From contig KZ538210.1 in NCBI GenBank assembly GCA_000934665.2, positions 1 through 64,000 of the forward strand: 64,000 nucleotides of DNA. Reading direction: 5' to 3'. A model generated the notes under the pieces. It worked only from the letters and a program-made list of their open reading frames with translations, was not told the origin of the DNA and did no database searches. How positions within the stretch are numbered: the first letter of the stretch is position 1; each line of letters opens with the position of its first letter. The position numbers and the translations under genes were made by a program. Below are positions 471 to 58,700 of the stretch, one piece after another. This DNA is from Catajapyx aquilonaris (Eukaryota).

Positions 471-1021
471 GCATTGAGGGTGATGAAATTGTTCCTCAAG
501 TTGCTGACCTGTGTGCTGGGTTTCAACATGCTGTTGCAGTTCATTTGTGTCGCAGGTTGCAGAGAGCCATGGAATATGCTGAAATTAGGGAACTGATCTT
601 AGAAGAGAACAAAGTCCTGGTAAGTCATTAAACGATTGAAAGTCTGCGGTCTTTACTAGTAACGGCTCTGCAGGTTGTTTCCGGAGGTGTAGCATCTAAC
701 GAGTACTTGCGCTCTTCAATCAATGTAATCTGCCAGCAAAAAGGCTACAGGCTGGTATGCCCACCCCCAAAACTCTGCACAGACAACGGCGTCATGATCG
801 CCTGGAACGGCATGGAAAGGTGGCACGCCGGCATAGGCATCGAGCACGACCTGGACAAAATCGACATCCAAGCAAAGTACCTATCATCCATTCATGTAAT
901 ATGCAATATAAACACACTAATTATCTAAAATTTCAGATGCCCCCTGGGTGAAAGCCACGAAGAGGACATCAGAAGCTTAGGTATTAAATGCAAGTGGATC
1001 CAGCTAAATAAGTACATGTAA
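471..1021 (+). CDS. OSGEPL1: Mitochondrial tRNA N6-adenosine threonylcarbamoyltransferase (Kae1/TsaD/Qri7 family), last three exons; the 5' part lies outside the window
   Basis: Exons 471-619, 674-876 and 937-1021 with GT-AG introns. They give ...ADLCAGFQHAVAVHL...VVSGGVASN...CPPPKLCTDNGVMIAWNG...KCPLG..., the family C-terminal motifs (GGVAxN, CTDNGxMIA). Confidence 0.92.
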
Positions 1022-16392: not shown

Positions 16393-19717
<3,325 letters not shown>

Positions 19718-29333: not shown

Positions 29334-32300
29334 ATGTTGATGAACTCGATTAAGATTCTTGGGTTCATCCAGGATAAAGAGGAAAAAGGTATGGCTCCCT
29401 TTTTCGCAAATACATGATGCAAACACTGCATTAGGAATATGAACCAAAAATAATCTTGTGATAAATTTATACATATTGTACAGTTAATTACAAGTAGGAT
29501 GTTTTAACATGCTGTTTGTGTCCCTCTAGGAAGCACCATTCAGTATAACTACCTGAATGACCAACCCAACAAAACTCAGCTTTTGAATGAAGGCAGTGGG
29601 GATGAGTTGGTGTGTACTGGATACAGAACGAGTTGTGCCAAGGCTGTCCTCTTCCATTCTGTCTCCATTCTCCTCTTGGGCCTTCCATATCTCATCACAT
29701 ACTGGTACAAGACATGGGGACTTTTCCTGCAGTGCCGAAAATGCTACCTGGAAGAGGCACAGTATGTGCTGCTCAAGGTGAGAATAATTTAATTTAATTT
29801 AATAATTTTGTTAGCAAGCGCTAATTTATTTCTTGAACTCATAAACGGGGATTTTGCAGAACGCTCATGGGCAGCATTATGTGGAAAAGGTCATGACCGA
29901 ACCAGTGGGTCCAGCTTTCCCAGCTGAATTCAGCGTCTTGTCATCACATTGGGGGAAAGAACCATCTGATCGGACTCATTTATGCCAACCAAATCCCCGC
30001 CTCTTTTGCTATTTTCAACACCAGCACATCCGATACACTTGGAACACCAACTCTACATTGTTCCAGAGATTGGATGGTTATTGTGACAACATTGACAACA
30101 CATCTGTGCTGGAGAAAATCGCAGGAAATTCCCAGGAAGAACAGGCCAATTTGTGAGTCTCGCCTTGCTTGATTGCAGTCTGGCAGAAATCTAACTAAAC
30201 TGATGCCACAGATTGCGACTCTACGGGTACAACACCATCAACGTGGAGGTTAAGTCATACTTGAGGCTTTTCCTTGAGGAAGGACTGAACCCATTCTACT
30301 TTTTCCAAATCTTCAGTATTATATTCTGGACATTGGATGACTATGTGTATTATGCTGGCTGCATATTATTCATCTCTGTAGTTTCACTTGCTGCTACTGT
30401 TTGGGAAGTTCGGAAGGTATGTATGCTGACAAATCCTATTGCTGTTCTTCTGTTTAAGAGCTAATAATAAATTCCTTACAACAAAAGTAAATATGCTTGT
30501 ATTTTAAATGTATTATTATCAAAAGCTTAACCTGCAACAAAATGTAAATGATGCCATTTTATTTACTTATGCTGAAACCTCAAAAATAGGTGTAAAAGTA
30601 ATGCAATCCCCCAGTGTGGAAAGTCACTGCAATTTTCTTTTTTTACTGACCTGATCTTGAACTCTTGCAGCAAAGCAAAACCCTTCACAACATGGTGACA
30701 TCGTCTGACACCCTTCTCATTAGAGTTTTCTGGAGCACTGGAAGTGAGTATTTTCATCTTTGAATGTCAAGGACATAGTTAACCTATTTTTTCCCCCCAA
30801 ACTCAGCAAGTGAAAATGTTCCTGTGAGCAACCTTGTACCAGGTGATGTGATTGAGATCCCTTCCAATGGATGCACGATGCCCTGTGATGCTGCTCTGAT
30901 ATCTGGCAGCTGCATTGTAAATGAAAGCATGTTGACTGGTGAGAGTGTTCCTGTGACCAAAACTCCACTGCCACCAGGAGATGAAATTTATTCTGCTGAT
31001 AAGCAAAAGAGGCACACATTGTTTGCAGGGACACAAATCTTGCAGACACGATTCTATAAGCAGGACAAGGTATTACTTTTTGTACTGATTACTTTTCTGT
31101 TGTGTATGCCAGACATAGTTTGGCCTGTCAAATTTATGCTTTTGTAAGCCACCAAAGCGGAATTTAAAAAAAATAAATTTATATATCATCTTTACTTAGA
31201 GGGGTGTCTGGAACATGTGCTAATCACTTGTAATTTTTTCCATAATATTGGCTAGAGGAACACCCTTTTCAATAGGTTAAAATGTTATTCAACGAGTGTC
31301 AAAAAATTTGCTTGGCTCCCACCCATACTTTGTTGGCTGAAATAGGCTTAATATTTTTGTTATTTGTGCAGGTGCAAGCTGTTGTGGTGCGGACAGGCTT
31401 TAGCACTTCTAAAGGAGAGCTAGTTCGCTCAATCCTCTTCCCCAAGCCAATGGGATTCAAGTTCTACAAGGACTCGCTCTATTTCATCCTGTTCCTCTTC
31501 TGCATTGCTGCTATGGGAATGGTCTTCTGTGTCTTCTTGTACGTGAAGCGTGAGGCAGAACTCTCTGTGATCATCCTCCGCACCTTGGACATAGTGACCA
31601 TTGTTGTCCCACCGGCCCTTCCAGCAGCCATGACAGTTGGAATTGTATATGCACAAAATCGCCTTAAAAAGAAAGGAATTTTCTGTATCTCACCACCAAG
31701 AATCAATATGTGCGGGAAGGTGAAACTGGTTTGCTTTGACAAGACAGGCACATTGACTGAGGAAGGGTTGGACTTATGGATTGTAGTGCCAGCTGAAGGG
31801 GGCAGTTTTGGACATGAAGAACAGTGTGCTATTGCTCTCCCTATGAAATCAAAGCTTGTGGCTGGAATGGCAGCATGTCACTCACTCACTCACATAGATG
31901 GACGCCTCACTGGTGATCCACTGGATTTGAAGATGTTTGAAGCTACTGGTTGGATTTTGGAAGAGCCAGGGAGCGAGTCGACCAATTTTGATGTTATGGC
32001 TCCCCCCATTGTGAAGCCTGTGTCTAGAATGAATTCTGCAGACTTGCTTGGTTTAGATGGAACAGATCCCGATGCAGTGCCTTATGAGATTGGGCTACTG
32101 AAACAATTCCCATTCACTTCTGCTGCTCAGAGAATGTCTGTAGTGGTGAGATCACTCGGATGTAAAAGGATGGAACTCTACTGCAAAGGAGCACCTGAGA
32201 AAATTCAATCACTCTGCAGAGAAGAAACAGGTTGGTAAATGATTTTTTTTAAATGAGTCATTTTAAATGGTATCCAAAAACATTTGAGTTGCAGGTGGTT

Positions 32301-33095
32301 TAAATTTTTTGATTGGCATTTGTGACAAACTATTCGTTTTTCCACGTTAATTTTTTTATTATTAAAGTGATTTGTAAATCAAGAGATAAAAATTGTGATA
32401 CCACCAGTAAGTAGCTATTAATTTCATTGTTGCAATGTGTGCTTTGTAAACCCTCTGGGTTAGGTACATTTCTGGTGTGTTTTGAATTTTAAGTTGTAAC
32501 AAGACAAAAGGTTCGATTCTCACTGCATTGATCTGCAGTTCCAGCCAACTTCAGCGAAGTACTAGTCAATTACACAAGAGAAGGATTTCGAGTGATTGCC
32601 ATGGCACACAAAGTTCTAGGACCAAAGCTCACCTGGCATCATGTACAAAGAGCCAAACGAGAACAGGTCAGGATCATGAAGCAATATTGTTTCCCAATTT
32701 TACCGGCCTGACTTGTTGGTACTTGTGATGTGATTATAAAATTTTCCTTTACTAGATGGAGTGTGACATGGATTTTGTGGGACTGTTGGTGATGCAGAAC
32801 AAACTGAAGGATGAGACCACACCAGTAATTCAAGAACTCGCTTACGCCAACATTCGTACTGTGATGGTCACTGGTGACAATATCCTGACTGCCGTCAGTG
32901 TTGCCAGGGAGTGTGGAATGATCCCCATATCAGACAGAGTTATTATTGTCACAGCTCATTCTCCAGAGGCATTCAGGCCTGCCCGGGTCAAATATGAGAG
33001 TGCCGAGAATCCAACAGAGTGTAAATGGAATAATGTGAGTACTCGTACCATTCTGTACCATGATAAGTTTTCGGATTTCCACCACCAGCATCTAT

Positions 33096-33134
<39 letters not shown>

Positions 33135-35661
33135 TTACCATGTAGTCCTGGTGGCAGTGTATCTCAAATATTTTTATCACATTAAAGTGACTTTTTACTA
33201 AGGGCAAGTGAAATGTGATTCCTGCTTTTTTTTCTTTTGAATACAGTCAAGTGAAGTCTCGGTGAACATGCCGTCATCTAAATTGGACTACCATTTTGCA
33301 CTGAACGGGAAAACATGGTCAGTTTTACATCGTCACTTCCCAGATCTGCTTCCCAAGATCATCACCCGGGGTACAGTGTTTGCTAGGATGGCACCTGATC
33401 AAAAGGCTCAATTGGTTGAGAGTCTACAGGAACTAGGATACATTGTCGGCATGTGTGGAGATGGAGCCAATGATTGTGGGGTATGCATTACTAATGTTGG
33501 AAGTTTTAGTAAGCGTGGTTTAAGGCAGTTAATTGCGATTAGTTCGTGAAAAATAAAGGAAAGATTAATGCCAAAATATGACAGTCCTTGGAGAGATAAA
33601 ACTATACTTTTCTGAAATTTCTGCTACAATGGATTGAAATTGCTCAAAAAGTTAAGTAGTAATGAAGTTTATGGGGATACTCTAGTGCCACTGCAAAGAG
33701 TTTTTTTTAGTGCCACTGCAAATGCTGTTTAGTGCCACTGCAAATGCTGTTTAGTGCCACTGCAAATAGTTTGGGGTTTAAGGACCTACATGGTCTGGAA
33801 TAACCCCGTTAATATCTGACTAGTGCCACTGCAAATGCTCATTGTCATGATGAGGCAGGAGCATTAAAAATTGTGTATAATTCTTTTACACCTCAGAATT
33901 GCATATCTGCAGAACTTCTGCGTTTATTGAAGGGTTGAAACATATTTAATTTCTTTCCTCAGGCATTAAAAGCAGCCCACGTGGGCATATCACTGTCTGA
34001 AGCAGAGGCTTCTGTTGCTGCTCCATTCACTTCCAAAGTGCCAAATATCAGCTGTGTCCCAGATGCAATTCGTGAAGGACGTTGTGCATTGGTCACCAGC
34101 TTTTCTGTGTTCAAGTATATGGCTCTCTACAGCATGGTTCAGTTTATGTCTGTCCTCATCTTATACACAGTAAGCATTCAAACCATGATATTTGCATGTT
34201 CATAAAGTATGGGTTGGACAAAAAAATTAAAACTTGACTGATGTTTTTTTTAAATGCAACTTTTTCCCCAGAAATATTCCAACTTTGGTGATGGAGAATT
34301 CCTGTACCAAGACTTGTTTGTGATAACAACTCTTGCTGTAGTAATGGGAAAGACCCATGCCTATGACATACTGGTACCAAAAAGGCCAATGGGCAGCCTT
34401 ATCTCTTTTCCCAACATTGTGTCAATATTAGTGCAGATAATCATTGCACTTGGCTTCCAAAGCGGGACGCTCTTCTACCTAATGTCACAGAAATGGTATG
34501 TGTTAATCATGAAGTAAAATAATTTTAATATGAAATGATATAGCCTTGTATTGCTTCCTGAACTAAATTATATGACAAGTTTTTCAAGAAAAGTACAAGA
34601 TCTGTGAAATGCCATTCTTAATACCATTTAAGGAAACATTGTAATTAGACTTACTGAGAAATTAATTTTTCAGGTACCACCGTGTTCCATATGTAGGCCA
34701 GATTGAACCAGATGTTTTCTGCTGGGAAAACACTATCATATTCTCAGTTAGCACATTTCAATATTTGATTCTGGCCTTTGCATTTTCTGCTGGAAAACCT
34801 TACAGGAAGCCATTCTACACAAATGGTGAGTTCCATCGCCTCTTGTGTTAGTTCAGTGAATGAATTTCATGAAATAAATTTACACTGTATATTTTTATAC
34901 TATGAATAATCATGTTTTATTTTCAGTTCTATTCCTGATAACGTTGTTAGTTCTGACTGCCTTCACCGCTCTATTGGCAATTCATCCAGGGGCCTTTTTA
35001 GCAAAAGTGCTTGAAATCAAAGTGTACCCTGCCGAGACTGAGATGTTCGTCCTGACTGTAATGATGCTTGTGGCTATGAATTTTGTATTGTCCACTGCAT
35101 TTGAGGTAAGTCATAAGTTGTTAGAATATTAAAATAATATGCTCTTGCATGTAGTTGTAATGAGCTCCCAAAATTCTTATTCAGAATGTGAATGCTCTAA
35201 CAAAATTTACAATATTTTGAAATAGTTTTAATTTGATACCCCGCACATGGGGTTTTATACAGCTACCTCAAGACATATGGAGTACTTGGTGTTTTGCCTA
35301 ATATTGTGCATACATGGTTCCAGTGTTAAAGTAGCCTATATGCATTTAGTACATCGTGAAAGTTAATTTTAGGCCCAAATGTCAAATTGTTGTGATCTCT
35401 AATCATTCAAATATATTCATTCAATATTAACGTCAGTTATCTTGTGTTGGGGGTTTGACATTCTTCTCTCCCAGGCATTTCAAACACATCTCCATATTGC
35501 AGGACTTTATAGTAAACAGCAAGTGGCTCAAGTCATTGTCACACACGATAATGAGGAAGAGGCAGCCCAAGAACCCATACAAGCAGATGGAGAAATTGCT
35601 GCTGAGCCAAAATTCCTGGCCTCATGTTGAGCCAGTGGAACATGCACCAGGAATTAGCTGA
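29334..35661 (+). CDS. P5B-type ATPase (ATP13A2/ATP13A3-like polyamine transporter), about 1185 aa; first coding exon tentative
   Basis: Exons 29334-29388, 29530-29777, 29860-30152, 30212-30416, 30671-30743, 30807-31069, 31372-32230, 32539-32666, 32756-33034, 33247-33480, 33963-34169, 34272-34495, 34674-34825, 34927-35105 and 35503-35661 (3558 nt, in frame). Motifs TGES, PPALP (P5B-diagnostic), DKTGTLT, KGAPE, TGDN and GDGAND are present. Confidence 0.95.
33092..33135. repeat. (TTTA)n microsatellite in an ATPase intron
   Basis: Seen directly; it produces the spurious LFIYLFIY tail of ORF 32756-33145. Confidence 0.9.
33683..33838. repeat. Repeats of TAGTGCCACTGCAAA (5 copies, partly tandem with 22-25 bp spacing)
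   Basis: Copies start near 33683, 33708, 33730, 33752 and 33821. Confidence 0.85.
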
Positions 35662-36696
35662 CGCCTCCCTAAGCTCCACTCGCGTGTGGTGGGGACATGG
35701 AAATGCAAATTTTCCCATCCTGGAATTTGTGGATTCAAAGACTACATTAGCTTGCTATTTGTGTAGTTGCTCTGCAAATTTCTAGGATGGGAAATGAAAA
35801 TGATTAACTGACCAGCCCTTATGATTTTCTAACGGCGATGTTTTGTAACAAAGACTCCAGAGCGAGTTTATCTGATTCTTTATGTGCAGTATACCAAGTG
35901 CACGGGTTTCCACTATCTACCTGCTAAGCATTGTATAATTTATTGTTAGAACTAGTCTATGATGTGTGAGTAATAGAAGGGTGCCTTTACAAGATCTGCA
36001 ACTGATGTGAAGTGGGGCAAGGTCATAGCACCTTTTGTCTGAATTCAAGGCTGTCTGGAAGAGAAAAAAAAAAGTCACTGTACAGACTTGTGTGCTGGAG
36101 GAAGTTCACAAGATACATTTCTGTGACAGGTATATTTTAATATCTATTAAAAATCCAGACTTTTCCAGCCGTGAACATTGAAAGGTCGTCTATCAAAAAA
36201 GTGTGTGACCCTGCCTAACTTCACCTACCTGTTAGTGTTATATTTGTTGCATGGTATTTAAAGCAAATTATCTGTGCATATAACCTTTTTTATATACTTT
36301 TAAAAGTTCCACTCTACAGGGTACACCAGAAGTACTAATTCATCCCATGTAAACTTTTGAGCAAGTACTTTTTGGGCCGTAATAGAAGTGGACCGCTGTG
36401 TTGTCCAACTTAATTTCGTAATATTTTGCGACACTGATTCAGAAATGACGAGATGACAAGTCTTACCCATCTTGTACTGCAAGCTGTTTGATACCACACA
36501 AATACTGTAATACTGTGCAGCAAGGTTGAAGACTTGTTCACATTTCAAAGGGTTACGTACCGTATATTATGTGTGAAATGTGTGTATACTATGCAGGTGT
36601 ACAGCGAATTAAAGTCGTTCTTAATTAGCTCATGTACTTATTGTACTTTTATCCTATTTCTCCCCTCTGGAAAAACTAGTTCAATCTTAATTTCAA

Positions 36697-36818
36697 GTTC
36701 CCGCCATACTTTTCCATATGGCACGATTCAGCTATTTTAAAATAACGGCTACTTTGTGATCACGCTTAATTTAAAAAAACAGTTATGAGCGTGTGGAAGC
36801 AGCAGCTGTGCTACATCC
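36697..36818 (+). promoter_or_regulatory. Promoter of the THAP/transposase-derived gene; a diverged copy of the gamma-tubulin promoter
   Basis: Four colinear exact blocks shared with 41321-41477: GTTCCCGCCA, AATAACGGCTACTT, AAAAAAACAGTTATGA and GCTGTGCTACATCC. Confidence 0.7.
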
Positions 36819-36897
36819 AGCCCGACACTCTCACAAGATGCAAGAAGTGCGAAGATCTTCGGCGAATCGAACATAATAAGTTGAAGCAAAGGAGACG

Positions 36898-39800
36898 ATG
36901 GGGAAGAACTTTTGTTCGTTGTGCAGGGGGAACGTAGAAGCCTCTTTGTTCAGCTTGCCGAACGATCCAGTGAAACGTCAGCTGTGGCTGGATGTTCTGC
37001 CCAGGAACAACGACATGCTGTTGAAGGCAGGGCGTCGCAGGCTGTGTGCGATACATTTCCGAGAGGAGGACATCCAGAGGGTAAAGATTGTGCGGAATAA
37101 GGCTGGGGCGGTTGTGGCTGAGGTTGGAGGCATCAAGCCTAGGCTTAAAGATGGTGCTCTGCCCCGGCTGTGGCTGGAGGGTCGTAAGCCGAAGGCACAG
37201 CTACGACGGCCCACTGCCTCACCTGCCAAGAAGAAGACGAAGAAGAGGCCACCCAAGAGCAGCCAAGAGCCTGGCGATAATACAGGCTCACCTGCCAAGA
37301 AGAAGCGGAAGCCACGTAACAGCAGCCAAGAGCCTGGCAATAGTACAGGCCCACCCGCGGCCAAGAGGAAGAGGAAGCCACGCAACAGCAGCCAAGAGCC
37401 TGGCACTGGATCACCTGCCAAGAAGAAGAGGAAGCGAAGAAAGGGTGCATCAACAGCAGAAGGCCAGGTCGAGGACCCTAACGATACTGAGGAATTGGCG
37501 TTGCAATATCGTACATCAGACTGTGAAGAACTGTGGGATGACGACTTCGGCCAAGCTGCCAGCCCTTCGCAAGACTATTCCGGCCTGGGAGAGGAAGTGG
37601 CAGATGCGACATCAAAATGGGCATTGGAAGACTTCGAGACATTAAAGGACCTCTACACAAACCCTAAAGCTATTAAACTACCGCCCTTCTGGAACCGCAT
37701 AGTTCCATTGAGAGGACCTGTGATGGTGTGCTTTTCTCTGTTGGAAAGTGAAAGAGACGGGATTAATCAAGTAGTGCCTGTTTTCCATAAGAACTTGTCT
37801 GTTGATGAAAATGGAATAATTACTTGCAGTGTCTTGGGTATGCCACTAGACATAGAAATGTTCCAATTACCCCCCGTTGGGCTTAAAACATTGAAGCACT
37901 TAGAAGACTTAATACTGGAATTCGATAGAGCCAAAGTATGTGAAGGTAGTTTGTTGCGTGCAGATCCTAACCACCAGAATCTTTCTGAAGCAGCAGTTGT
38001 GGACTTTCGTGGGTATGTACGGCATAGAAACTGTGACCTGCTTGTAGATCGTGATGGAAAGTGTAGGAGCTGCAAAATGGTAAGGAGGACACAGCTTGCA
38101 ATGAATTTGCGGCACGAAAGGGCTGCTCAGCCACTTCCTGAAGGATCTCGTATCATACGAAGAAGGAGGAGGAGGAGGAGGCAAATGCCGATACAGTGGC
38201 CATTACAGCCGCTTAAGAAACCTACGTGCACCAAGCTACCAGCACAAATAAAGAAAGGGAGAGGCTTAGGGAAAGGTGTGGTAGGAGACCTGCTGGAAGA
38301 AGTTTGCGAAATGCAACTGCAGATGGCCAGTATGAATGCCAAGTCTGTAGAAGATATGCTTGCCCAGTTGCCATCCCATCAACAAACCATAGTCACAGAA
38401 ATTGTAGCAGCTTCAAAGGTTGGATCTGCTGATGGGAGGAAGTACGCAGAAGACTGGATTCTACTTTGTCTTCTGCTGCGTATCAGATCTCCTGCCTCAT
38501 ACGTCTCCCTGCGAGAGAACCACAGTCTACCCTTGCCTTACCCGGGGACCATTCGCAGATATTTGGATATGATCAATGCTCCTTGCGGTTTCGACCCTTA
38601 TTTTTTCGGCATGTTCATGAGATACCTGAAGCAAAAACCAGACATCGAGAGGCATGGAGTTATCCTTTTTGAAGTAATGTCTGTTCGTAAAAGTCTGTCT
38701 GTGTGGTCCAAATCATTAACATACCAGGCGCTCATAGATTTTGGTGAGGAGAACATTCAGGAACCAATCATGGAGGAAAGGGCCACACATGCCCTTGTGC
38801 TAATGTTTCAGCCCCTTGCAGCGCAATATACACAGGTCATGGGCGTGTTTGCCTCCAAAGGATCAGTGAAATGGATTACCTTGGCCCAAATCATAATCAA
38901 GGCCATATTTTCCCTGGAAAAATGTGGAGCGAAAATTCATGGACTTGTATCTGATGGAGCCCAAAGAAACAGCGAGTTGTGGTCTGTGCTTGGAATCAGC
39001 GGTGAGCTCCGACACCTTGAACTCGATGAATGGAATAACTCATTTCAGCATCCTGTGCATCCAGAGAGACGCATTTTCGTGTTTCATGACACTCCACAAC
39101 TGGTGAAGGCTGTGAGAGACCGTCTTTGTCAGGAACAAGAACTTGTGGTAAGTTATTCCTGAATGCAATGTCCTTTACTGTGGCCCTTGCGCACTGATCT
39201 TATAATTCATAATTGAAATGTAGGTTCATCCCAATGCAACTCCTGCAAAATGGCAGCACTTCGTCACTCTCCATGAACAGGACCTATTGCTTCCTGATGA
39301 GCTGCGAGTGTGTCCCAAAATAACATCGAATCATTTGGTCCTCAGCAGCAGCACAAAAAAGAGAGTTAGTCTTGCCATACAGGTGAGTGAACGGTATGAT
39401 GCGAGTCATGTGGTGGCCCTGGGAATTTCATATGACATGTTATTCTATATTTACTAACTTTCATCGCAGATATTCAGCAAATCCGTTGCTGATGGACTTG
39501 AACATTATGCAGGCCACGGAGTGAGCCGTCTGGATGACTGTCAGGGGACAGTTAGCCTTTGCCGGGTATTGAATGCTGCTTTTGATGCACTTAACCGGAA
39601 AGTACCACACGAAGGAGTTGCTCCAGGCAGCGAGGATTACACGGTTTGTGGTTTTGAATTTTCCCCCCTAATGCAACGTAATCATTGCTGCACTTCATAA
39701 CATACAGTGTAGTACATGTCTGACAATCTATCTTGACTACAGGTATTGCAAACTACTCTACAATGGCTCAATAACTGGGAGAAGGGACTCCAGGAAGGCC

Positions 39801-40831
39801 CGATACTTCTAGGCCAATTCTTGTCTTCGAGTACTGCAGAAGATCTGCGAGTAATGTTGCAATCAACCATAGGAATATGCCAGTACCTGAAAGACAAGTT
39901 TGAGTTTAAGTCTGTTCCAAGTGGCAGGCTCAATCAAGATGCATTTCAGGTAAGATAAGCAATTTAGTGCTGTCCTTAGTCTTGAGCATAATTAACTTTT
40001 CTGTTTCAGAGGTTCTTTGGAACAGTCAGGCTGGCAGCGGGGTCAGACAATCATCCAGCTAGGCCTACATTTCTGCAGCTTTACAAGATTCTCTCTGTTT
40101 ACAGTTTGCTTAAACCCCCGAAGTGTGGCAATTGCAGCATACATGACAACACACCAACAGAAGCTCGCGTGAAATTAAGCGACCTGAAGGAAATCTTCTC
40201 CCAGAGCACTCCTGAACCATCAGCTGTTGAAGCCTTGAAGGAAAAATTGACACAAATTATTGAGACAAAAGAGTGGGAGTTCACTGACATAGTGGAACAT
40301 GACTACACCTGTGCACATGTTGTGGAATGCTTAGCATATTATGTTACAGGATATTTGGCAAAACAGATCTCCAAGTACACTGAATGTGACGAGTGCAGAT
40401 CTGCTTTCGTGTCACCCATGACAGTTTCTCAGCAGGTTGCCTCACAACTTGCCAGCCTCAAGGGTCATGGAAAGTTGATTCATCCTCACACTCAGTTATT
40501 TCATTTCATCAGGTCAGTAGAGACATGCTTTGCAAAGTACTCGGTTGAGGAAGACGCATATGAAAGGACAGTAGAAGAGGTTCTGAATACATGTGACTTC
40601 AGCTTTCCATGCAATACCCATAAAGTGGACACTATGGCTTTTGCTGCTAAGTACTATTTAAACATGAGGATGAATCAGTGGACCAGAGAGGGTAACATGG
40701 AGACCAAGATGGACAATCACGCCAAGAAGTGCAAGAAGGACAATCAGGCAAAGGAGAATGTAGCTGAAGTTTGCACCACCCCGGTTATAGGGAATGAAGC
40801 GGAGGTACAGTCAGACGTGAAGGGAAGTTAA
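36898..40831 (+). CDS. THAP-domain, P-element/THAP9-like transposase-derived protein, 1203 aa, predicted catalytically inactive
   Basis: Exons 36898-39147, 39224-39382, 39470-39643, 39743-39949 and 40010-40831, all with phase-0 GT-AG introns and no stops or frameshifts. N-terminal THAP C2CH finger (CSLC...FSLP...W...LCAIHF...LKDGALP). P-transposase blocks: SPASYVSLR..LPLP, VSDGA..N, DTPQLVKAVRD, KRVSLAIQIFS, FDALN, RLNQD.., YVTGYL..CDEC. Confidence 0.9.
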
Positions 40832-41320
40832 ACAGGCCTGTGTGTGCAAAGTGGCACTTGGACCCAATTTGGGAGTGTCCACCGCAGCTTCATCTTTTGA
40901 ATTTATGTTATCTGAAGAAAACAGTCTCCATTTTAGAGCACGGTTGACCATGATTATCGCCATTATGTTGGTTACTTTTGAACTGATGTAATAATAATAA
41001 TGCCATTTTTTACTGTCAGAGGACAGTTCGGAACAGAAGTGACTGTTCATTATCATAGACAGTAAAAAGTTAATTTTTTATATGCGTAAACATGTTTTGC
41101 AGCCAAACCCTTCAACTGATAAAATGGAAAGGGTATGCACAAGCTGCGAAGGTTATTACACTAATTGCTCTTGTAAATTTGTATAAAATTGTATAGACTC
41201 TGTAATCGCCATGGAATAATTTCCCTAAATACACTTGATCGCCCTGAAGAATTCATTTTTTTTTTTTTTTTCCTTCCCTAGTTCTTGTGCAGATCATTTC
41301 GTTTCTTTTTTGCAAGATAC

Positions 41321-41687
41321 GTTCCCGCCACAATTCCCACCTGGCAACCCTTCGTCACTAGTTACAAAAATAGCCTTATCGCTCATCAGCTATGAATAAC
41401 GGCTACTTGCCCTATGCGTCAGTTGATCAAAAAAACAGTTATGATGTTAATGTGAGAGAAGCGGCTGTGCTACATCCGGTCACTCGACTCCATCTGGCAA
41501 CCCCTGCGCTGCGCAACCTGCGAGGGAAACGATCGTTCCATCGCCCTTGTCGGCCTCCCACATTCGGACCTCCTCCGCATCACCCCCAGTGCTTGCCCCC
41601 GTGCTTGCCCCTGGGCTTCAGGAGAAGGGCTCGAGGCCAACACCGACGGAGCCTTTGGTTTGGGTCCACCCAACACACACAGCCAAC
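41321..41687 (+). promoter_or_regulatory. Gamma-tubulin promoter and 5' UTR with an E2F-like site
   Basis: CpG-rich, with TTCCCGCCA at 41322-41330 and CTGGCAACCC twice (41341, 41495), directly upstream of ATG 41688. Confidence 0.65.
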
Positions 41688-45479
<3,792 letters not shown>

Positions 45480-46240: not shown

Positions 46241-49082
46241 TTAAAACAATAAATTAACAACAACAGCTTCACAGATGCTGGAGTAGGGTTGGTGCAACAC
46301 CAGGGAATTCCCACAATTCTGGCTCACCAACTGACCTGTGGATGGAAGATTCATGAGCGTCGAGTCGAGAGATAATAACGGGTGACTTGTGCTCCTATCC
46401 TTGCCATCCTTTTTCCCTGAACCTCTGCAGACATGACATTACAGAACTTTATGATTGTAATTTTCAATACCAGCTTCCATCTCTTTTTGTGATTGTTATT
46501 GTTAGTATGAAAATAGTCAAATCAGAGGCTTACCCATCATAGTTAGGAGTCTCTTGCCCTGCGGATGTTTCGTGGTCATCACACCAGGAGTCGGGGCTAT
46601 TCCGCCGGCCGAGTTGTTCCATGTCGTCCTTCAACTCAGCTATGGCCCGCCCCACCTCCACAGTCATTTCCGGAAAGTCGGCCACAACTAGGTAAAATGC
46701 CGCACGATTCATCCATATCGTGTGACATGGATCATCTCCTACAACCCTGACCCTAACATAGACAAAGGCAGTTGTTAGGTAACTTTCAAGTTTTCCCACC
46801 TACAATCTCCACTCTGTCATTGAAATACACAAACCAGCGCTGCCATTAGCTTCACCTAACTACGTTGTGGTTACCCCATGATGTCTTTGAAGAAAAGGAA
46901 AATTGTTTCAGATTGGTACGTGCACATTCACCTGTATGTGTTCCTCATGTCCCTTGCCAATCCAAAAAAGATTCCATTGACCACGGTGTTTTCCTCGTGT
47001 CTCTCCAGAATCCTGACAGTAGCCATGCCTCTATGCAGGAAGAAGACATGGTCGGTAGAAGTGCCTGCCTGAAGGATGACATCCCCTGGAAGGTGAAGCC
47101 TTGATTCAAAGAGGGGGAGGAGGCGATCCAGTGCTTCTTCAGGAATCCTCCTGAACAACGGCACTTCCTCTATCACGTCCCAGTACCTGGCCCGATTCAG
47201 CAAACGGAGTAAGTGTTCCGGTATGTAGGCCAGCACTTCATTATCAAACACTGCATCTCCCTTGTGCTTCTCCCAATACCACCTGTTTTTAAAGCGAAAG
47301 AACACTTGTCAATTCATGCCATGAATTGAAGAAATACAGTATAATTGTTTAATGGAAAATAATGACAGCAAGTGATAAATTGTTATCATTAAGAAAGGAT
47401 AATAGTTACTTCATTATTTTCTTCTGCAGATCAGGCTGAATCCCTCTAGTCTTCATGTAGATCTTCAATTCTTCTTTAATGGCATCGTATCTTTTACCAG
47501 GGGTTTGCTTTACAGCGTAGGCCTCAACCAACAATGTTATGAAGATGGCATACTCAACAAGACCAACAATGCTGCTGATCATGGAGGTGCATATGTCTTC
47601 TGGAGTTTTGGGAACAGACGATCCGTAATTTACCCCAGACATGGAAGAAACAGCCATAAAAAATGACTGCAAGTAGAGTCGGCCATTTCCTTTCTCCCAG
47701 CCCCCTGCCTGGGCCAACCATGAATCGGCATCCAATTCATTAGCGTACATCAGTTCGACTGTGATGATCTGCATGCAGGCCAACCAGTGGGCTGTCAGGC
47801 ACCACAAAAATGCAAAGAGGCACAGTTGACTTGCAGTAGAACGTATCTGGTACTCCTGTGTCATGTTTGAGGAAACATTTATGAAATTCCTCACATCATT
47901 GCATGAAGGTGATGACAGCGACAACATAAACTGCAGAACTATAATAATTATTACTTACCTCTATGATCACTTTGGAACACCTCCAGAGGCGTACAAACCT
48001 TAATGACTTGATCAACTGAAGAAGCTTTTCATCTGCGTGTAGTAGAGACTTATTTGACGTTATCGTGAACAGACCAAAGGCAATCCATTGCCAAGGAATG
48101 GCTGCGACCAAGTCCACCAGGAACCATGATTTGGCATACTTCGTCCATACCTCTGCAGGTTCAAGAAGTATCACATTATCTTCCTTTCTTTGGATTCCAG
48201 TGAAGAAGAATAGAACGACATCCACCATGCAGAAGATATCAATGATGAGATCTGCACCATACCAATGGGACCATTCCAGGATGGTCTCCCGGCCCATAAA
48301 GGCCACATCAAGTGGGAGGAAAATCGTGTTCATCAGGAGCAAAACAACTATTGTGTGTTCCCAGTACAACCTGTGAGAAGAGGGAGATGCTGACATCTTT
48401 CTTATATTAAAACAGGCTTAAGTAATGCTTGGAGCAATATTAATGCTCAGTGATTTTTCCACTTTCATAATGAACTAGGTAGCAGACCCATTGCCAAATT
48501 TTGACAATATTGCTTGGCCCACCCTCCAACTTGGACGTAGCATGATAAGCCACTACCAGTTGGCACATATGTACACTCCTGCCACTCAGGGAGAAAGTAG
48601 TACTTCATGCACATTGGTGATGTCACAACACGGACAAAGTTCACCAGGCCTCTAGTATACTACTACAGTCCTCTAATTGTTGAATGGCGAGAGTGGGTAA
48701 TGTGTAATTGAATAGGGAAAGTGAAACATTGGTAACTACTACCTAGGTGATGAGTCAACTTATTTACAGTAGGGTGGAGTCACGGATTCTGTATGTGGTG
48801 ATGAACCTACCTAAAGATGCTGAACGGATGAATCATGTGCGGAAAGGTGAAAGCCTGCTTGATCTGCTCCTGAACAATCCTGGATCTGCTCTTCATGACC
48901 TTCCATGATATTCTTCTCTTGTCAGATATCACCAGTAGGTCTTCAAGATATCGTACAAACAGAGCCCACTGCGACAGTTGTTCGGGAGTGTTCAGGCTTG
49001 GCCACCGACTCGCCACCACATACCGTTGGCGTGGTGCCTTCCTCGCCTTTTGCTCAAACTTCTTAATATCCGTCGCTTTCAT
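46241..49082 (-). CDS. Divergent HCN-like cyclic-nucleotide-binding-domain cation channel, about 627 aa (first and last exons tentative)
   Basis: Exons 49082-48811, 48370-47959, 47855-47410, 47282-46932, 46752-46534 and 46424-46241 (1884 nt, in frame). Features: IHPFSIFRLYW before S1, WFLVDLVAAIP (S3), IKSLRFVRLWR (S4), AHWLACMQ (S5), pore SMSGVNYG..P, C-linker YMKTRGIQPDLQKKI and CNBD PGDVILQAG...VFFLHRG. Confidence 0.85.
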
Positions 49083-51900
49083 CTAGACAATTTGGAAATT
49101 TGCATTGTGACTGTTGGGCACCAAACTTTCATTGTTAATAGGAAGATAGTTGCATGCGAGGTTGCATGTGGCAAGTGTGGGCTGCTGTTCATACCCACAT
49201 GGGTATTGATGTTAATTACTGTCGATATAGGCTAGTGACATGTTGCTTAGCTGCCACTGTGAGTGTAAGTACGTACCATCGGTTGAATTCTGGTGGACTT
49301 CATGGTTCGGCAACGCAACCTTATTGGGAACAACTTTGTCGACAACTCTGTCAAAATTCGAATTTCGAACCTCCAGTGACGTCAGACCCAGCGGTGCCAC
49401 CTGTGGACACAGGTGCCAACCCGTCTGAAACCCGGCGCTCTCTTTGGATCCGACTCCGAACTCCATTCCTCTGGATTATAATATCGACTGGCGCTAACAA
49501 GGCGCCACTCCAACCCACCCACCCACACTGTCCCCCCTGCTTCATGCTGTCCCCCATTTCTGTGAGACCAGCAGTGCTCGCCCAACAGGCGGCAATGGCA
49601 CAGGCACCACTGTGCTGCCATCAACAATAGAACCATCTGCTTGTGTTGACCAAGACATCAGGACACCATGGCTCAGAAGATGCCAGCAGGCGCAACAGAA
49701 AAGAGCTACATCCTCCAGCACAAGAAGGAAGATGTCCCGCAACAGGTGGGAGCTCCTTTTATTTTTCTGTAACTCATCTGCTCCTATCAACAAGTGATCC
49801 GTATGCAAAAACCTCATTGCATTTGCCAGTGACGCGAGGGATGTGGTTTTTAATGATATGCAATCTAATTTGCGCCAGGTGAGTTTTATCGAGTTTGGCT
49901 GAGTTGCGCAAAATGTTACCTGCTGGCTGCTGCTCCACTTTCACTTTCGGTCTCACTTCTTGGTTAGAAGGTCGTAGGAAGTAACCTTGTGACTCATTCA
50001 ATTCTTAATCATTTTGGGTAAACTAAGTCTGGACCAAGTGGTGGGGAAAATGATAGAAAAAGTTACCACCGCGTCGCAAGATCAATTCCTTGAAAAATTC
50101 CTCAGGGAATAAAAAGGCAGTTTCCTGTTTAGCAAATGTGGAACCGGATATCCGGAGCGATATAAAAAATATCTGAATCGATCTTTGGATTCTGCGAACG
50201 GGAGCGCTCTTTGAGATGACAGAAAGGCTTTTTGATACAGTTTTACCTGGCTGGATGATGCCTCTATTATTTATGATCCCGCGGTCCGTGTGTCGGATCG
50301 ATATTGAGGCGCTTCTGCGAAATTGTTGATGGAGGCTTTTACGCCCACAAAGAGACATTAGGGAGAGGAGGACGTTTGTCGTCAATATTTTCTGGGGAGG
50401 TGACACTTTAGAAAATGTCAAATTCTCAGCACAGCACAGTTGCTGGGAAACCGTCATTGTGACGCCACCGATGCATATACAGCCAAGATAAATGGTTTTT
50501 AACTCGCAATGCACCACAGGTCGCGTGCAGATAAAGACAACCACGCAATTTTTGGACTGCTAATTATTATTTTTTTACCGCCAAACCAATCTGTTACACA
50601 TACATGCACTGCCTTTTTGTTGTTAAGTGATTCAATCCGCTGCATGCACTGCCGGACAAGACGTATCGCATAATACTACAGTATGTGTGGTTGCCGTCTC
50701 ATAAGGATGCTTTTCACTCGGCACATTTTCTTTCAGGAAGAATCGCGGTTAACGACAAAAAAAAAAATGAAAACTGCAAATGTGGTGGTAGAAGAAAAAA
50801 AAATGAGAGTTTTTTTTTCGGTCGGGTTTACCGAAGTGTGTCTTTCAGCGGTCGTTGTCCTCAGAACGTGACTCTGATTAGGGCTTTTTCTTTACGAGCG
50901 AACTACCATCAGCTACGGTACGGATTTGAAGAAAAAAAATAGGCATGACGAAATTGATGTGGGTGTGGGTTTGCATCCGTTTGGTGATGGCCCCGTTTCA
51001 TCATCTGACAGATACCGGTACTTTATATAGAGGACGACAGGCGGTAGATAAAAAATATTTGGCGAGCACATTTTCATTATTTATTACTGACGTATTTGCT
51101 CCCATTTTATATGCACTCGTGCATCAGGTGTAACAGCTGTTAATGCCATTTATGATAATAGCACGTGATTCTTGCGTGATTCATTATTAACGTACTGCGT
51201 GTTATGGGTGGTTGTGACAGAATGATCATATACGTCTGTCAGTCACTGCGCATCGATATTAGTTTTCATTGTGTACTATCGTGAAGGTACACACAACAAT
51301 AGCGATCCTGCATTGTCTTCATTTCCGTTCACCTGTGGAGCGGCTGGATTTAGGAGGAAATCTAATCATCCTGCAATTATTAGTCCGTATTTATATGCAT
51401 TGCCAAAGCTGGCAATGGCGGAAACTATGCTTTTATTACCTGTTGGAGCGTTGCGTAATTGCAAAACTAATCACAAGCAATAAAAATTACGTCGTAACAT
51501 GGGAATGCTTGATCACAAGACGCCATCTGAAGACACGATAATGTACAGGAATTGCGCCGCATCCTGGCTGCCAAACAGCTTCATTGTCCGTATGATATCC
51601 GCAGTACTCGAGGCTGAATGAGCACGTCAAATGCAGGGGCATCTCTTTCTCAAAAACTAGGTCTGAAATTCCGACGGCAAGCCTCCGGAGAGGAGCAAGA
51701 TATTGAGTGCGTGATGTGCAGGCAACCAAGGAATGCCGTGCCATTAAAGAGGGCGGGGGAGGCAATAATTGCTTGTATATACAGGGTGGAGCACTATCCA
51801 CGTCCACAGTTCATGAACCAATAATTGCGGGAAGAGGTCAATCTTCGTAGACTTATAGGCAGTGCATCTTCTTCAACAGGAGGCACCTGTTGGTCCACCG

Positions 51901-53982
51901 ATGATGTCGCCTCCAGGAGACCCGGAGGATGACACGAAGGGGCTGGTGCAGATGGAGACTGGAGAGAAGGGTGATGTGGCCAGCAGCAGCCTCCCACACG
52001 CAAGCTTCAACTACATCAACTCCATCATTGGCAGCGGGGTCATTGGGCTGCCTTATGCCCTCAGACAAGCTGGGTTTGGTCTGGGGCTGTTGCTGCTGGT
52101 GGTGGTGGCTGTGGTCACCGACTACTCCTTGGTGCTGATGATCCGGGGAGGACTCATCAGCGGAACATCTTCCTACCAGGGACTGATGGAGGCAGCGTTT
52201 GGAAAGGGAGGCTTCCTGGTTCTGTCCCTCCTGCAGTTTGCATACCCTTTCATAGGTGAAACATCTCATTGTGCTATAAAAAAAATTTTACCAAGATTTC
52301 GCAATAATTATTTTGTCAATGTAGGCTGTAGAGGCACTCATTGCAGATATACTTTTCAGCAATGGTGAGCTACAACGTGATAGTGGGTGACACATTGACC
52401 AAGGTTGTGTCTCGAATCTCTAGCCTGCCTCCGTCTCACTTCTTGTGCCGAAGGGAGTTTGTAGTGGCTGTGTCCACGCTAGTCTTGACCCTTCCTCTCT
52501 CCCTTTACCGTGACATGGCCCGCATGGCCCGCATCTCCTTCCTCTCCCTGGTCTTTGTGGGCTTCATCATGGTGGCCATCTGGATTCGTCTATTTTCATT
52601 GGGCTCCAGCATCCCCGCCACCGTGGATGCCTGGAGCTTTGCCAATGCTGATGTCATGCAGTCAGTGGGCATCATGGCTTTTGCATTCATGTGCCACCAC
52701 AACACCTTTCTGCTCTATGGGTCAATTCAGGATGCCAGTCAACAGAGGTGGGACAAGGTCACACATGCTTCAGTCATCACTTCCCTCATCATCAGCCTGC
52801 TCTTTGCCATTGGCGGATACCTCACATTCACAGGAGACGTCCAAGGTGGATGACACCTTTTTGTTTCTTACAAATGGAAAGCTATAGCAAATAGGCATTT
52901 GACTAACTCATGAGTTCTTACATGACCTGTGACATGACATTTACATTCTTCAGGTGACCTGCTGGAGAACTACTGCTATGAGGATGACCTGATGAATGTT
53001 TCCCGCTGCCTGTTCTGCATAACAATCCTTCTCACCTTCCCTATTGAGTGCTTTGTATCCAGGGAGGTGGTCGAGAACGTGTTCTTCACGAGGCAGCAAC
53101 CAGCACCCCTATGGCGGCATGTGGTCGTAACAATTTTTCTCGTCGTCATGTCATGCTTACTGTCCATGACAACTGACTGCCTGGGTCTTGTGCTGGAGCT
53201 AAATGTAAGTGCGAAACATTTGCTGGACTGCAAAAATGACAATCCTTAACTTTCTTTTTACCAGTGGCATTTCAATTAACTTAATTTAAAATGTTAAATA
53301 CCAGTGACACAAGTCATTTGTAGAGTTGCTTATCTTTGATGTTAGTGTCTACTGCTATCCCAAGTGCATTAGTGTATAAATTACAAGGCTTCAAATTATC
53401 TGTAACTGTTGCCCAATGAGTGATTGTGGATTGAGGAAGTATGCTTGCAGCCTTCAAAATTAACGTGATGCAACAGATAATGCGGTACAAATGATTGAAG
53501 ACCACTAGCTTACTTCCAATAAAATCATTTGTCATTAAGACATGACAATATCCTTAGCCTTCAAAATTATCATGTCAAGACAGCTTATGATTTAGAGACT
53601 TAGTCACACCTGCTTTTTTAGTAGGCTCTCATGTGATAGCACTAATGCTCACAATTTATCTTAAAATGTGTTGCAGGGTGTCCTGGCAGCTGTGCCCCTG
53701 GCCTACATCCTCCCAGCCCTCTGCTACCTCCGCCTGGCAGAAGGAAAATTGTTCAGCAAAGACAAAGCAGCAGCTATAGCCACAGCTGCTTTTGGCATCT
53801 TGGTGGCGGTAGCAGGCTTGCTGGTGATGGTTCTAAGAGGAAGCGTGGGCAGACGGTGCAGTCATGGACATGACATGCCCTACTGCAACATCGAGGGAAA
53901 CTCATCCATGATGATGCTGCCAATGCATCAATTCCTGTCTAGCACCTCTGAATCTCCACTGCTGCCCTCTCCAATGCCATAG
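51901..53982 (+). CDS. SLC38A11: Putative sodium-coupled neutral amino acid transporter 11, about 465 aa (start codon tentative; acceptor at 51879 implies an upstream exon)
   Basis: Exons 51901-52255, 52360-52845, 52954-53204 and 53677-53982 (1398 nt). Motifs FNYINSIIGSGVIGLPYA, AFAFMCHHN, GDLLENYC, TFPIECFVSREV and DCLGLVLELNGVL. Confidence 0.9.
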
Positions 53983-55766: not shown

Positions 55767-58700
55767 CTACTCCGCCTTCTTCCCATTCTTGTGCACATCA
55801 CGAGTCATCCTGAAGAACTTCCTGACCAAGGGTGAATAAAGGGGCCAGCACCCATAAATAAAGAAACCAGAAAAGTAGAGAGTGGAGTAGACATGCCACC
55901 AGCGGGGGAAGGACAGGAGGGCGAAGGGGACTATGCAATAACCAAAGAACACCACAAGGTGAACCTTCAGCACAATCCATCGCACCACTGATCCGATACC
56001 CGACTGGAATGGACGGGTGAAAGGGTGGTCTCTAACAATGGAGTCCAGCTGAAAAGGTGGAAAAATTCATGTTAAAATTGTTGTGTTCAGAGAAAAGCAC
56101 TGTCTACCTACAAGGAGTAGATGACCAAAAAAATTCCAAATGAAATTAATGTAACAGTATTTAAAACTTTTTGGTCAGTAACCCTTCAATGTACTGCACT
56201 AGTTAGGTTCACAAATGCAATTTATTACAGGTGAAGTTAACCTAATTTGAAAAAAAACGTATATAAAGATGTTTCATTGACCTCACAAATATATGCCATT
56301 TTCATAATTATCAGCAATATTTGGCGATTCCGATTTCTGGACTTCATAATTCAGGGACACTGATATCACGTCTTTGGCTGACTCTGAAGGTCAAGTTCAG
56401 AAACTCACATCCGGCCATAACCAGCGACAGTTAATCTAAGGCACATAGAGAAAAGTCCAGTCTAATCAATCCAACAACTTGAGAGTCAGACATCCCTTAT
56501 CAGTAAGCTGCAGTGTACGTAAACACACACAAACACATACTCTCAAGTTAATTGAGTCTAGCCAAAGTATACCAGTACATCCAAGGATGTAAAGGCTATA
56601 TCTATCCTGGCATTTCAACAAAGAATTTATTTCAGTTCCCACAAATCAGTTCCCACAAATCAGATTGGCAACTGCTTTTACGATCACTAAGGTGAGGAGC
56701 TCCGCAGCAGGATAAGGAAAGAATAGCTCTCTTTGAATCTCTTCATAAAAATTTTGGCAATGCAGTGTGCTAGAAAAGGATAAGTCACTGAATCACCAAA
56801 GTGTATTCTCAGTGAGTGTGAGCACTGGGAACAGTTGGGTGTCAAGTACAGTGAAGTCCAAGCACTAGCTTTCCTTCCTCAACTTCTCCTGAGCTTTCCA
56901 CCTTTTGTAATATCAATAGGCAAATACGATAGGGCTCAAAGAACATGACAGGATCTGTTTAGGTCCATCAGCAATCGGCACATTGGCCTTGGTTGTTTAC
57001 TGCTGTCATGAGAGCCGGATCTCAGCTGAGTGAGAGCCAAACCAAAATCCAGTATTTTGCAGTGTCTCACAATTATTCAACCTTAAAAATTATAATCATA
57101 CCATAACAAAGCTGATAACTGTCTCATGAACCCTGCATTTATAGCTGCATGTGCTAAACCATTCAGGTCATTTAAATGTCATGTAAACAATACTGAAAAA
57201 ATTATCGCACGTGTTACAAGATATTAATGTTCCATATTCATTCCAAGATGTCCCATGAGAGAATCTTTCAACTAAAATGCACGGCTACAATATATTCAAC
57301 CTACGATTAGTACTGATTCTGCAATGGGCATCAGTAACTGTCAACAATACTACCAATATGTCTGATAGTTGAATGCTTGCATTGTCAGCACTAATCCAAG
57401 GCTGAACACATTACACTTGAATCACGTGGCACAAAAGTTTCATGATCGGGTCATGTTATTTTCATTGAAATTGTTGAAACCTGCATGAAACTTGTGTGCC
57501 TTCCCTTCATAACATCTTGGACACTTTTACTTACATCTCTCTCAAACTTCATGACGATGAACTCCATAAAGAAGCACATGTAGTACCCTGAGTGCAGTCC
57601 ATGCCATACGGCTAGGAAGAGCAGAGCTGCTGCCTGGGAAACGTAGCGATTTCCCAAGAACTTGAGTCGCTTGTACACATACTGGGCCACCCAGGCATTA
57701 GTATTGGTGTTGAATGATACTATTATGTGGCCAAACTTGGTAGACTTCTCAAATGTGTCCAGTTTCACATTTTCACATCCATTCCATAGCGTCCGTCCTT
57801 CCTTGTCCTTACCGTTGTAGCCAATACCTGGAACACGAAGGAAAGTTTAAATAAGGTGATCATTATGCCAGTTAAAAATAAAATTCACATGTTCATAATT
57901 ATCACTCACGAAAGTACAATTGGCACTCTTCATGTAAATGCCAGGAATGAGACTGTGGTAATGGAACACATGGTTTACTGAGAGTAATTAGTGCTGTTGA
58001 TTATATTTGTACTTCCCTTGCACTATGACTGTTTTAACAGAAATAATTATCGTTGGAGCACAAGTATGAACAAGTACAATTATTATGCAACTCTAATTCT
58101 CTCATACACTGATTCAGCTTGGAACAAAGGTATATTCCCAAGTCTCCTTACCTCTAAGCCAAGGTTACCCTCTAACATGAGAAAAATCACCCTATTATTA
58201 TCATTGTCCTTTCTTTCTCATTTATCTTCAGTGAGAATAATACTACTATACATACCCCTACAAATTGCGCCATTTGGACACTCGAAGTCTTTTTAAAAGC
58301 AGTAACTGTACGATTACACAATGGAATTGTTTCCATTATGTCCATGCAATTTATGCCAAATCTACATAAGAACTGTTGCTTAAAAGATTTCTAATCTCCC
58401 TGAAAGATCAAATAGTAACTAGCTGTGCAACACTTGCCTGAGAATCACTTGCATTACCAGTTAGGTGGCCTCCTCGTGCCAGTGAAAAGAAAAGTAGAGA
58501 ATCCCGACTGGCGGGAAGTGGGCAGAAAAACCTTGTTACATATTAGCCTGCATTTTATGCAAGGGTGTCCTGGTTTACACTCTGGGAATAGAGGAAGTTC
58601 CAGGTTTCACTGCTCTCTGCAGCAAAGGCATGTTAAAAATGATAACTTATTTAATTCCACCGTAATCCGATGCCAGCAGAATTAACAGCAACCCACAAAT

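Follow-up and report, generated by a model that had tools for sequence, protein, structure and literature searches.

A full-length P-element/THAP9-type transposase gene with altered catalytic residues beside gamma-tubulin in Catajapyx aquilonaris, a candidate for domestication

Can a transposase gene that has changed its catalytic residues be kept whole by its host? The question is raised by a gene on contig KZ538210.1 of the Catajapyx aquilonaris assembly GCA_000934665.2, of which we analysed positions 1 to 64,000 on the forward strand (this whole stretch of 64,000 nucleotides (nt) is called the window below). The gene, at 36898-40831 on the plus strand, is derived from a transposase of the P-element/THAP9 type. 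A preliminary description of the same DNA had proposed that it is undamaged, catalytically dead and co-opted by the host, and had placed it between two housekeeping genes. The neighbours are indeed housekeeping genes, an ATP13A3-like P5-ATPase upstream and gamma-tubulin about 860 bp downstream. Our analysis favours, with modest confidence, a stationary and catalytically disabled protein that may still bind DNA and GTP.

The gene has five exons and 1203 codons followed by TAA (Table 1). Exons joined by script give 3612 nt, whose translation has no internal stops, and the four introns all run from GT to AG in phase 0, which upholds the five-exon frame without disablements that had been described. 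The ATG at 36898 is the first in-frame ATG after an in-frame TAA, and retention of intron 1 would bring a stop after four codons. At all four exon junctions the joined protein is colinear with its homologues, with no insertion or deletion. On the 3′ side of the gene lie a 16-base T run (41256-41271) and a 24-nt hairpin-like inverted pair (40994-41017 and 41058-41081).

Membership in the P-element/THAP9 family is supported by domain, profile and database searches. The THAP zinc finger scores 28 bits with Pfam PF05485 (cut-off 23.9). Its C2CH ligands, said to be complete in the preliminary description, are all there as C6-x2-C9 and C50-x2-H53, along with P21, W30, F54 and a C-terminal ALPRLW motif. 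Exon 1 also matches TNP-like_RNaseH_N (PF21787, E 1.8e-22) and exon 3 matches TNP-like_GBD (PF21788, 38.1 bits, cut-off 24.8). The RNaseH_C match at the start of exon 5 reaches 17.7 bits, under the cut-off of 24, because intron 4 splits the motif; the joined protein aligns straight through it. The helix-turn-helix region is at consensus at Y516, W520, C524, L526, S531, Y535 and the LPLP of residues 544-547. A structure has been solved for one relative only, the Drosophila P transposase (PDB 6p5a), and a profile of ten long relatives aligns with residues 101-553 of its chain A at E 8.1e-58.

HMMER found 1730 relatives of exon 1 at E<=0.001 among 1.84 billion representatives, the best at 37% identity. 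A word-indexed search with residues 440-750 gave seven matches, all ant and tick proteins of 32-45% identity, and one with exon 5 gave three, namely a stick-insect P-like protein (48%), a tick protein and an unnamed one. In a local BLASTP of the joined protein, P0017 matched at 36% over 926 residues and P0113 at 47% over 428 residues (625-1050).

Catalytic residues were read from an alignment of the joined protein with 156 relatives: the seven word-search matches to residues 440-750 and 150 listed of the 1730 HMMER relatives, one being common to both sets. The triad was anchored on 6p5a, by D230 in AFDEMK, D303 in IVSD and E531 in NQDIVEHFF; these are the triad residues of the Drosophila P transposase (DmTNP) according to the accessible text of PMC8230255 and PMC7776569. 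In the window protein the corresponding residues are E592, D686 and Q930, that is, E-D-Q in place of D-D-E. The motifs reported earlier, FEVM, VSDGA, NQDAFQRFF and the block DTPQLVKAVRD, are thus borne out both as to their codons and as to their places in the triad and beside it (Table 1). At the third position Glu is found in all 10 alignment rows that carry the NQD..F motif, and the five rows without Glu include four tails that lack the motif altogether (P0011, P0066, P0077 and P0159). A [C/D](2)H motif after the second Asp is given as a family signature in the accessible text of PMC8230255; here its Asp is kept as D731 and its His is replaced by Q734.

Published mutants indicate what such changes cost. 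The accessible text of PMC8230255 reports excision at ~10% of wild type for DmTNP D230C, D303C and E531Q, and low activity for human THAP9 D304C, D374C and E613Q, with low excision by E613Q. A preprint (10.64898/2026.09.03.748810, accessible part) puts integration by human THAP9 E613Q at ~7.5% of wild type, and in zebrafish THAP9 (Pdre2) alanine at any triad residue dramatically reduced excision (PMC10983969, accessible part). Q930 is the same change as the E613Q laboratory mutation. Given two changed triad positions together with the changes at H342 and N349, catalysis has very probably been lost or severely impaired. As for the earlier wording, catalytically dead, the part about the residues stands, the triad being E-D-Q, and the part about the chemistry is strongly suggested; the E531Q and E613Q mutants of those reports keep residual activity.

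The rest of the protein has fared differently from its signature residues. A column was counted as conserved if it held 25 or more residues with a consensus of 80% or higher; there are 58 such columns, and the window protein matches 51 of them. Its mismatch at N4 is an alignment artefact, the spacing being C6-x2-C9 here and C-x4-C in relatives. With the four N-terminal signature columns set aside, 49 of 54 columns are matched (0.907), against a median of 0.892 in the relatives covering those columns (n=78), 46 of which fall below the window protein. Of the four N-terminal signature residues themselves it keeps two, whereas 68 of the 78 relatives keep all four. An a-priori signature was made up of the triad and the D and H of the D(2)H motif, following the accessible text of PMC8230255. 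Over 59 columns the protein has eight mismatches, three of them at these five signature columns; the hypergeometric p is 0.015 and drops to 0.0096 once the N4 artefact is removed, a test whose strength is modest. Two further mismatches, V593 and D741, adjoin signature residues.

The residues for GTP tell of retention. DmTNP contacts GTP through D528, K385, K400, V401, S409, F443, D444 and N447 (PMC7776569, accessible text), whose equivalents here are D927, K782, R797, V798, S806, F841, D842 and N845, as placed by the 6p5a profile alignment and by an ungapped stretch from H390/H787 to S409/S806. Seven of the eight are identical, and the eighth, K to R, is changed likewise in P0017, the closest full-length relative. 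The FD..N motif is lost in the relatives P0065, P0076 and P0087, so its retention here is not automatic. Judged from these residues, the GTP pocket appears to be intact.

Is the gene still part of a mobile element? The earlier statement that it has no recognisable terminal inverted repeats agrees with two scans of the whole intergenic space (9-mer and 8-mer seeds), in which 35100-36897 was compared with 40832-41700 and gave no usable pair of at least 13 bp at 80% identity. The inverted-repeat candidates that did appear were rejected as poly-A/T runs or, in one case, as a 14/17 pair with its left arm within the ATPase gene. No 8-bp target-site duplication was found in the scanned intergenic space, and by tblastn the window holds no P-like sequence besides the gene, neither a further copy nor a fragment. 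GC content at third codon positions is 0.49 in the gene and 0.505 in its neighbours (2005 codons, five genes). Relative synonymous codon usage correlates with that of the neighbours at 0.67, where each neighbour compared with the rest gives 0.33-0.53. An origin as foreign DNA was considered on codon usage and CpG and set aside, neither showing an anomaly. The host-like composition gives weak support to a long residence.

The gene also appears to share something with its downstream neighbour. A 91-bp direct repeat has one copy (A) upstream of the ATG of the gene and the other (B) upstream of that of gamma-tubulin (Table 1), with the perfect blocks TCAGCTAT, AATAACGGCTACTT, AAAAAAACAGTTATGA and GCTGTGCTACATCC. 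The local alignment of the copies scores 59, against 20.5 +/- 2.3 (maximum 32) in 300 shuffles. Its 99 columns comprise perfect runs of 8, 14, 16 and 14 bases (52 columns) and spacers in which 21 columns match, 11 mismatch and 15 are gaps, the last from 8 gap events; the Jukes-Cantor distance comes to 0.46 for the spacers and to 0.144 over the whole alignment. Exact matches to the three long blocks occur in the window at copies A and B only, and the first long block has one further match with two mismatches, at 44809-44822 on the minus strand. Two of the perfect blocks (within 36741-36818 and 41395-41477) contain TAACGG and, on the other strand, TAACTG, which we take to fit the Myb-type consensus YAACKG and to be suggestive for a promoter common to a mitotic gene. 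Perfect blocks set in worn spacers have the look of conserved regulatory sites after an old duplication, and on that ground we infer that the gene and gamma-tubulin may use copies of one promoter module.

The repeat offers a clock of sorts. In the frame 4.5% of point substitutions would create stops, so that at a neutral divergence of 0.05 per site the frame would stay open with P = 3e-4, and at 0.1 per site with P = 9e-8, indels uncounted. If the repeat arose with the arrival of the gene, selection has therefore held the frame open.

It is thus somewhat probable, in our judgement, that the gene encodes a stationary, catalytically disabled DNA-binding protein that descends from a P-element/THAP9 transposase and is kept by the host. 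The domestication and purifying selection claimed in the preliminary description are backed indirectly, by the selective loss of signature residues, the intact GTP pocket, the host-like codons and the old, diverged repeat. Several points weigh on the other side. No orthologue and no protein above 50% identity were found in database collections of ~5.8 to 15 billion sequences, and the named matches are uncharacterised arthropod proteins that are probably transposon-encoded. Four of the 78 relatives (P0026, P0035, P0056 and P0154) keep no more than two of the four signature residues, which shows that copies presumably borne by transposons include such variants too. Human THAP9, whose D230 equivalent is K282, is active all the same (preprint 10.64898/2026.09.03.748810, accessible part), so that loss of the first Asp alone is no proof of inactivity. 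The repeat may be older than the gene or may come from a dispersed family, which leaves the premise of the age argument unproven. P elements favour promoter regions for insertion, and a site 860 bp upstream of gamma-tubulin hence also suits plain insertion.

These points bear mostly on one alternative, unlikely but of real weight: that the gene is a defective yet undecayed copy of a P-like transposon, one of several, which has lost its ends, has picked up chance missense changes and has no host function. Nearest relatives of 37-48% identity in ants, ticks and a stick insect are typical of transposon-borne genes, and the site near a housekeeping promoter fits the P-element insertion preference. 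Variation at the catalytic positions is also seen elsewhere, the first Asp being absent in 9 of 145 homologues and at least two of the four signature residues in 4 of 78. Neutral decay, however, predicts something other than changes that cluster on signature residues while 49 of 54 other positions and the GTP pocket are kept. The 3609 nt of the frame show neither stops nor frameshifts, and the four splice-site pairs are all intact. Terminal inverted repeats and target-site duplications are missing from the whole intergenic scan, the codon usage is host-like, and the flanking direct repeat is old.

That the protein is an active nuclease or transposase with a non-canonical E-D-Q site, working as human THAP9 appears to do without the canonical first Asp, we consider quite improbable. 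The change of two of the three triad positions and of both H342 and N349 stands against it, as do the lack of Glu at the first position in all 145 homologues and the lack of transposon ends at the locus to serve as substrate. The alternative acid reported for human THAP9, D304 (equivalent to DmTNP D252), is T630 here, in a column with Asp in 98 of 141. Such activity could still draw on Glu592, which remains a carboxylate, and on the GTP pocket, which is needed for synapsis and is intact; in the accessible sources human THAP9 with K282 has integration activity (preprint 10.64898/2026.09.03.748810), and the Glu-to-Gln mutants are not wholly inert (E531Q at ~10% excision, E613Q at ~7.5% integration). 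A non-functional frame, either a silent relic that is open by chance or a wrongly spliced model, would suit the finding that neither AATAAA nor ATTAAA occurs between the stop codon of the gene and the gamma-tubulin ATG (40832-41687). We rate it very improbable: the four junctions restore colinearity with homologues without indels, a retained intron 1 gives a stop, and a frame of 1203 codons with 4.5% stop-creating substitutions would not be open by chance beyond ~2% neutral divergence.

If the gene is a host-kept transposase derivative, its protein would bind specific DNA through the THAP finger and the helix-turn-helix region, would still oligomerise and bind GTP, and would engage DNA without cleaving or joining it. 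It would act by occupancy, most plausibly repressing related P-like elements or serving the host as a regulatory or chromatin factor, and would be transcribed from a promoter with the 91-bp module common to gamma-tubulin. A more specific proposal is that a full-length, non-cutting P transposase that binds GTP and DNA acquired the gamma-tubulin promoter module, is co-expressed with that gene in dividing or germ-line cells, and silences P-like elements there or uses GTP-dependent DNA pairing for a chromosomal task. In all its parts this proposal is speculative and rather doubtful.

The comparison with the Drosophila P transposase (6p5a/6pe2) brings out both sides of the gene. The order of parts is the same (THAP, dimerisation region, helix-turn-helix, split RNase H, GTP-binding insertion, C-terminal domain), and the agreement extends to D303, D339 and the eight GTP-contact positions. 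In contrast, D230, E231, H342, N349 and E531 are E, V, Q, D and Q, and the window protein adds a folded domain of ~160 residues and a basic repeat linker after the THAP finger. Unlike a P element, the locus has no inverted ends of the 31-bp type and no 8-bp duplications. The intron positions presumably differ from those of the fly gene as well. Human THAP9, as the accessible sources describe it, is likewise P-derived, full length, stationary, free of terminal inverted repeats and target-site duplications, and without the canonical first Asp (K282), but it retains D374 and E613 and shows activity in assays, whereas the third residue here is Gln. Orthology with THAP9 is not indicated, because the best relatives are arthropod proteins and vertebrate THAP9 is absent among the named matches.

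Stationary P-derived genes of flies offer a second comparison. Nouaud and Anxolabehere reportedly described in 1997 an immobile P-derived gene of Drosophila (cited in PMC8434751), said to act via DNA binding and not by transposition, which resembles the reading favoured here. The stationary P neogenes of the Drosophila montium and obscura groups, which are like the 66-kDa repressor, are truncated and lack the C-terminal catalytic exon. The window protein, unlike them, is full length (1203 residues): it retains the C part of RNase H, the C-terminal domain and the GTP pocket, and its probable loss of activity is due to point substitutions. The 66-kDa and KP repressors of the P element have THAP and dimerisation regions and block transposase by occupying its sites; they are products of a mobile element, made by alternative splicing or internal deletion, whereas the gene here is stationary and full length.

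Among arthropod P-like proteins, P0017 (1065 aa), P0113, P0282 (Dryococelus australis, 48% identical over exon 5), P0006 (Temnothorax nylanderi) and P0010 (Dermacentor silvarum) share the architecture of the window protein, including its Cys-bearing domain. P0017 and P0113 differ from it in having canonical residues at every signature column they cover, and P0006 and P0010 in having D-E, H and N (in columns inspected up to the D(2)H..RN block). All five appear too distant to be orthologues. P0056 (897 aa), one of the relatives with few signature residues, keeps 43 of 47 other conserved positions and is possibly a further P-type protein that was inactivated or domesticated.

Domestication of P-type transposases has precedents in THAP9 and the stationary P genes of Drosophila, but such cases are few, and the function of THAP9 is still unknown. 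In the literature searched, a scope outside which most older Drosophila papers lie, there was no case of an invertebrate P domestication with lost catalytic residues. On the more specific proposal above, the gene would represent a third way of domesticating a P transposase, next to THAP9, which is still active, and the truncated neogenes of Drosophila. A natural full-length Glu-to-Gln variant in which the GTP pocket and every DNA-binding part are kept would separate DNA binding and GTP-dependent pairing from catalysis in this protein family. If functional, the module common to gamma-tubulin would be a concrete case of a captured transposase gene gaining host regulation. As one defective copy among many the gene would be ordinary. 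The features to note are the intact GTP pocket beside the broken triad and the promoter module common to gamma-tubulin.

Two parts of the protein lie outside the P transposase core. Between the THAP finger and this core, an in-frame tandem repeat encodes repeated basic units of the form PAKKK(R)K...SSQEPG, whose PAKKKRK stretches are probably nuclear-localisation signals. The same DNA also yields a spurious frame of 198 codons on the minus strand (36978-37574). Behind the linker comes a domain of the subfamily, residues 240-401, whose cysteines are conserved in 62 of 64 homologues (Cys348), 57 of 59 (Cys379), 69 of 72 (Cys389) and 68 of 74 (Cys392). It has no counterpart in the fly P transposase, with which the profile aligns only from the coiled region on. 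Folded together with 33 relatives it gave a confident model (predicted local distance difference test 89.7). A Foldseek search with this model found no clear solved relative (best E 0.087), and in a VIA search the best row was a Mediator subunit (Z 6.8, root-mean-square deviation 3.1 over 83 residues), in the range that the tool calls common, with E2/UEV/RWD-like rows also present at Z 4-5.4.

Table 1. Positions of the transposase-derived gene, its catalytic residues, associated repeats and other genes in the window (residue counts are those of the alignment column)
Feature	Position	Strand	Description
Exon 1	36898-39147	+	Codons 1-750: THAP finger, basic repeat linker, subfamily domain, basic/coiled stretch, helix-turn-helix region, N-terminal half of RNase H domain
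Intron 1	39148-39223	+	76 nt, GT..AG, phase 0
Exon 2	39224-39382	+	Codons 751-803 (53): start of GTP-binding insertion domain; K782, H787, R797, V798
Intron 2	39383-39469	+	87 nt, GT..AG, phase 0
Exon 3	39470-39643	+	Codons 804-861 (58): GTP-binding insertion domain; S806, F841, D842, N845
Intron 3	39644-39742	+	99 nt, GT..AG, phase 0
Exon 4	39743-39949	+	Codons 862-930 (69); ends NQDAFQ, including D927 and Q930
Intron 4	39950-40009	+	60 nt, GT..AG, phase 0
Exon 5	40010-40831	+	Codons 931-1203 (273) and TAA: end of RNase H domain, C-terminal domain
THAP zinc finger	36913-37173	+	Pfam PF05485
Tandem repeat	37218-37405	+	In-frame, unit 63-66 nt, ~2.8 copies, 84% matches
Subfamily domain	37615-38100	+	Residues 240-401, four near-invariant cysteines
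DmTNP D230 to E592	38671 (GAA)	+	D 136/145, N 5, H 3, A 1, E 0/145
DmTNP E231 to V593	38671-38676 with E592 (FEVM)	+	E 133/145
DmTNP D303 to D686, kept	38953-38955 (GAT; VSDGA)	+	D 112/120
D(2)H..K..RN block	39088-39120	+	D731-T-P-Q734-L-V-K737-A-V-R740-D741
DmTNP D339 to D731, kept			D 94/102
DmTNP H342 to Q734			H 95/106
DmTNP K345 to K737, kept			
DmTNP R348 to R740, kept			
DmTNP N349 to D741			N 89/103
DmTNP E531 to Q930	39947 (CAG)	+	Last codon of exon 4 (NQDAFQ, then RFF in exon 5); E 11/16
Direct-repeat copy A	36728-36818	+	80-170 bp upstream of the ATG of the gene; candidate promoter module
Direct-repeat copy B	41386-41477	+	211-302 bp upstream of the gamma-tubulin ATG
TsaD/OSGEP-like gene	344-925	+	Pfam
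G-beta gene	18029-19014	+	Pfam
ATP13A3-like P5-ATPase	29574 to ~35660	+	Pfam frame 29508 onward
Gamma-tubulin	41688 (ATG) onward	+	Pfam tubulin frames 42948-45077
Cyclic-nucleotide-gated-type channel	46931-48417	-	Pfam
Amino-acid transporter	51859-53979	+	Pfam
MBOAT gene	57454-60620	-	Pfam

The surroundings of the gene were surveyed by Pfam scans of 223 stop-to-stop frames of at least 70 residues outside the gene region (129 + 94), out of 239 in the window. An exon of the ATPase (31276-32235) matches ATP13A3-named proteins of arthropods, annelids, brachiopods, hemichordates and amphioxus at 46-64% identity, none closer, and the window appears to come from a compact animal genome without a close relative in protein databases. 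Scans of the 64-kb window for tRNA genes and Rfam families gave no matches. The window contains one single N, at position 6886. The observed/expected ratio of CpG is 0.49 both in the transposase-derived gene and in the window, and is 0.32 in the ATPase (29574-35660) and 0.36 in gamma-tubulin (41688-45100); such a contrast, with lower CpG in the housekeeping neighbours, is characteristic of genomes whose gene bodies are methylated.

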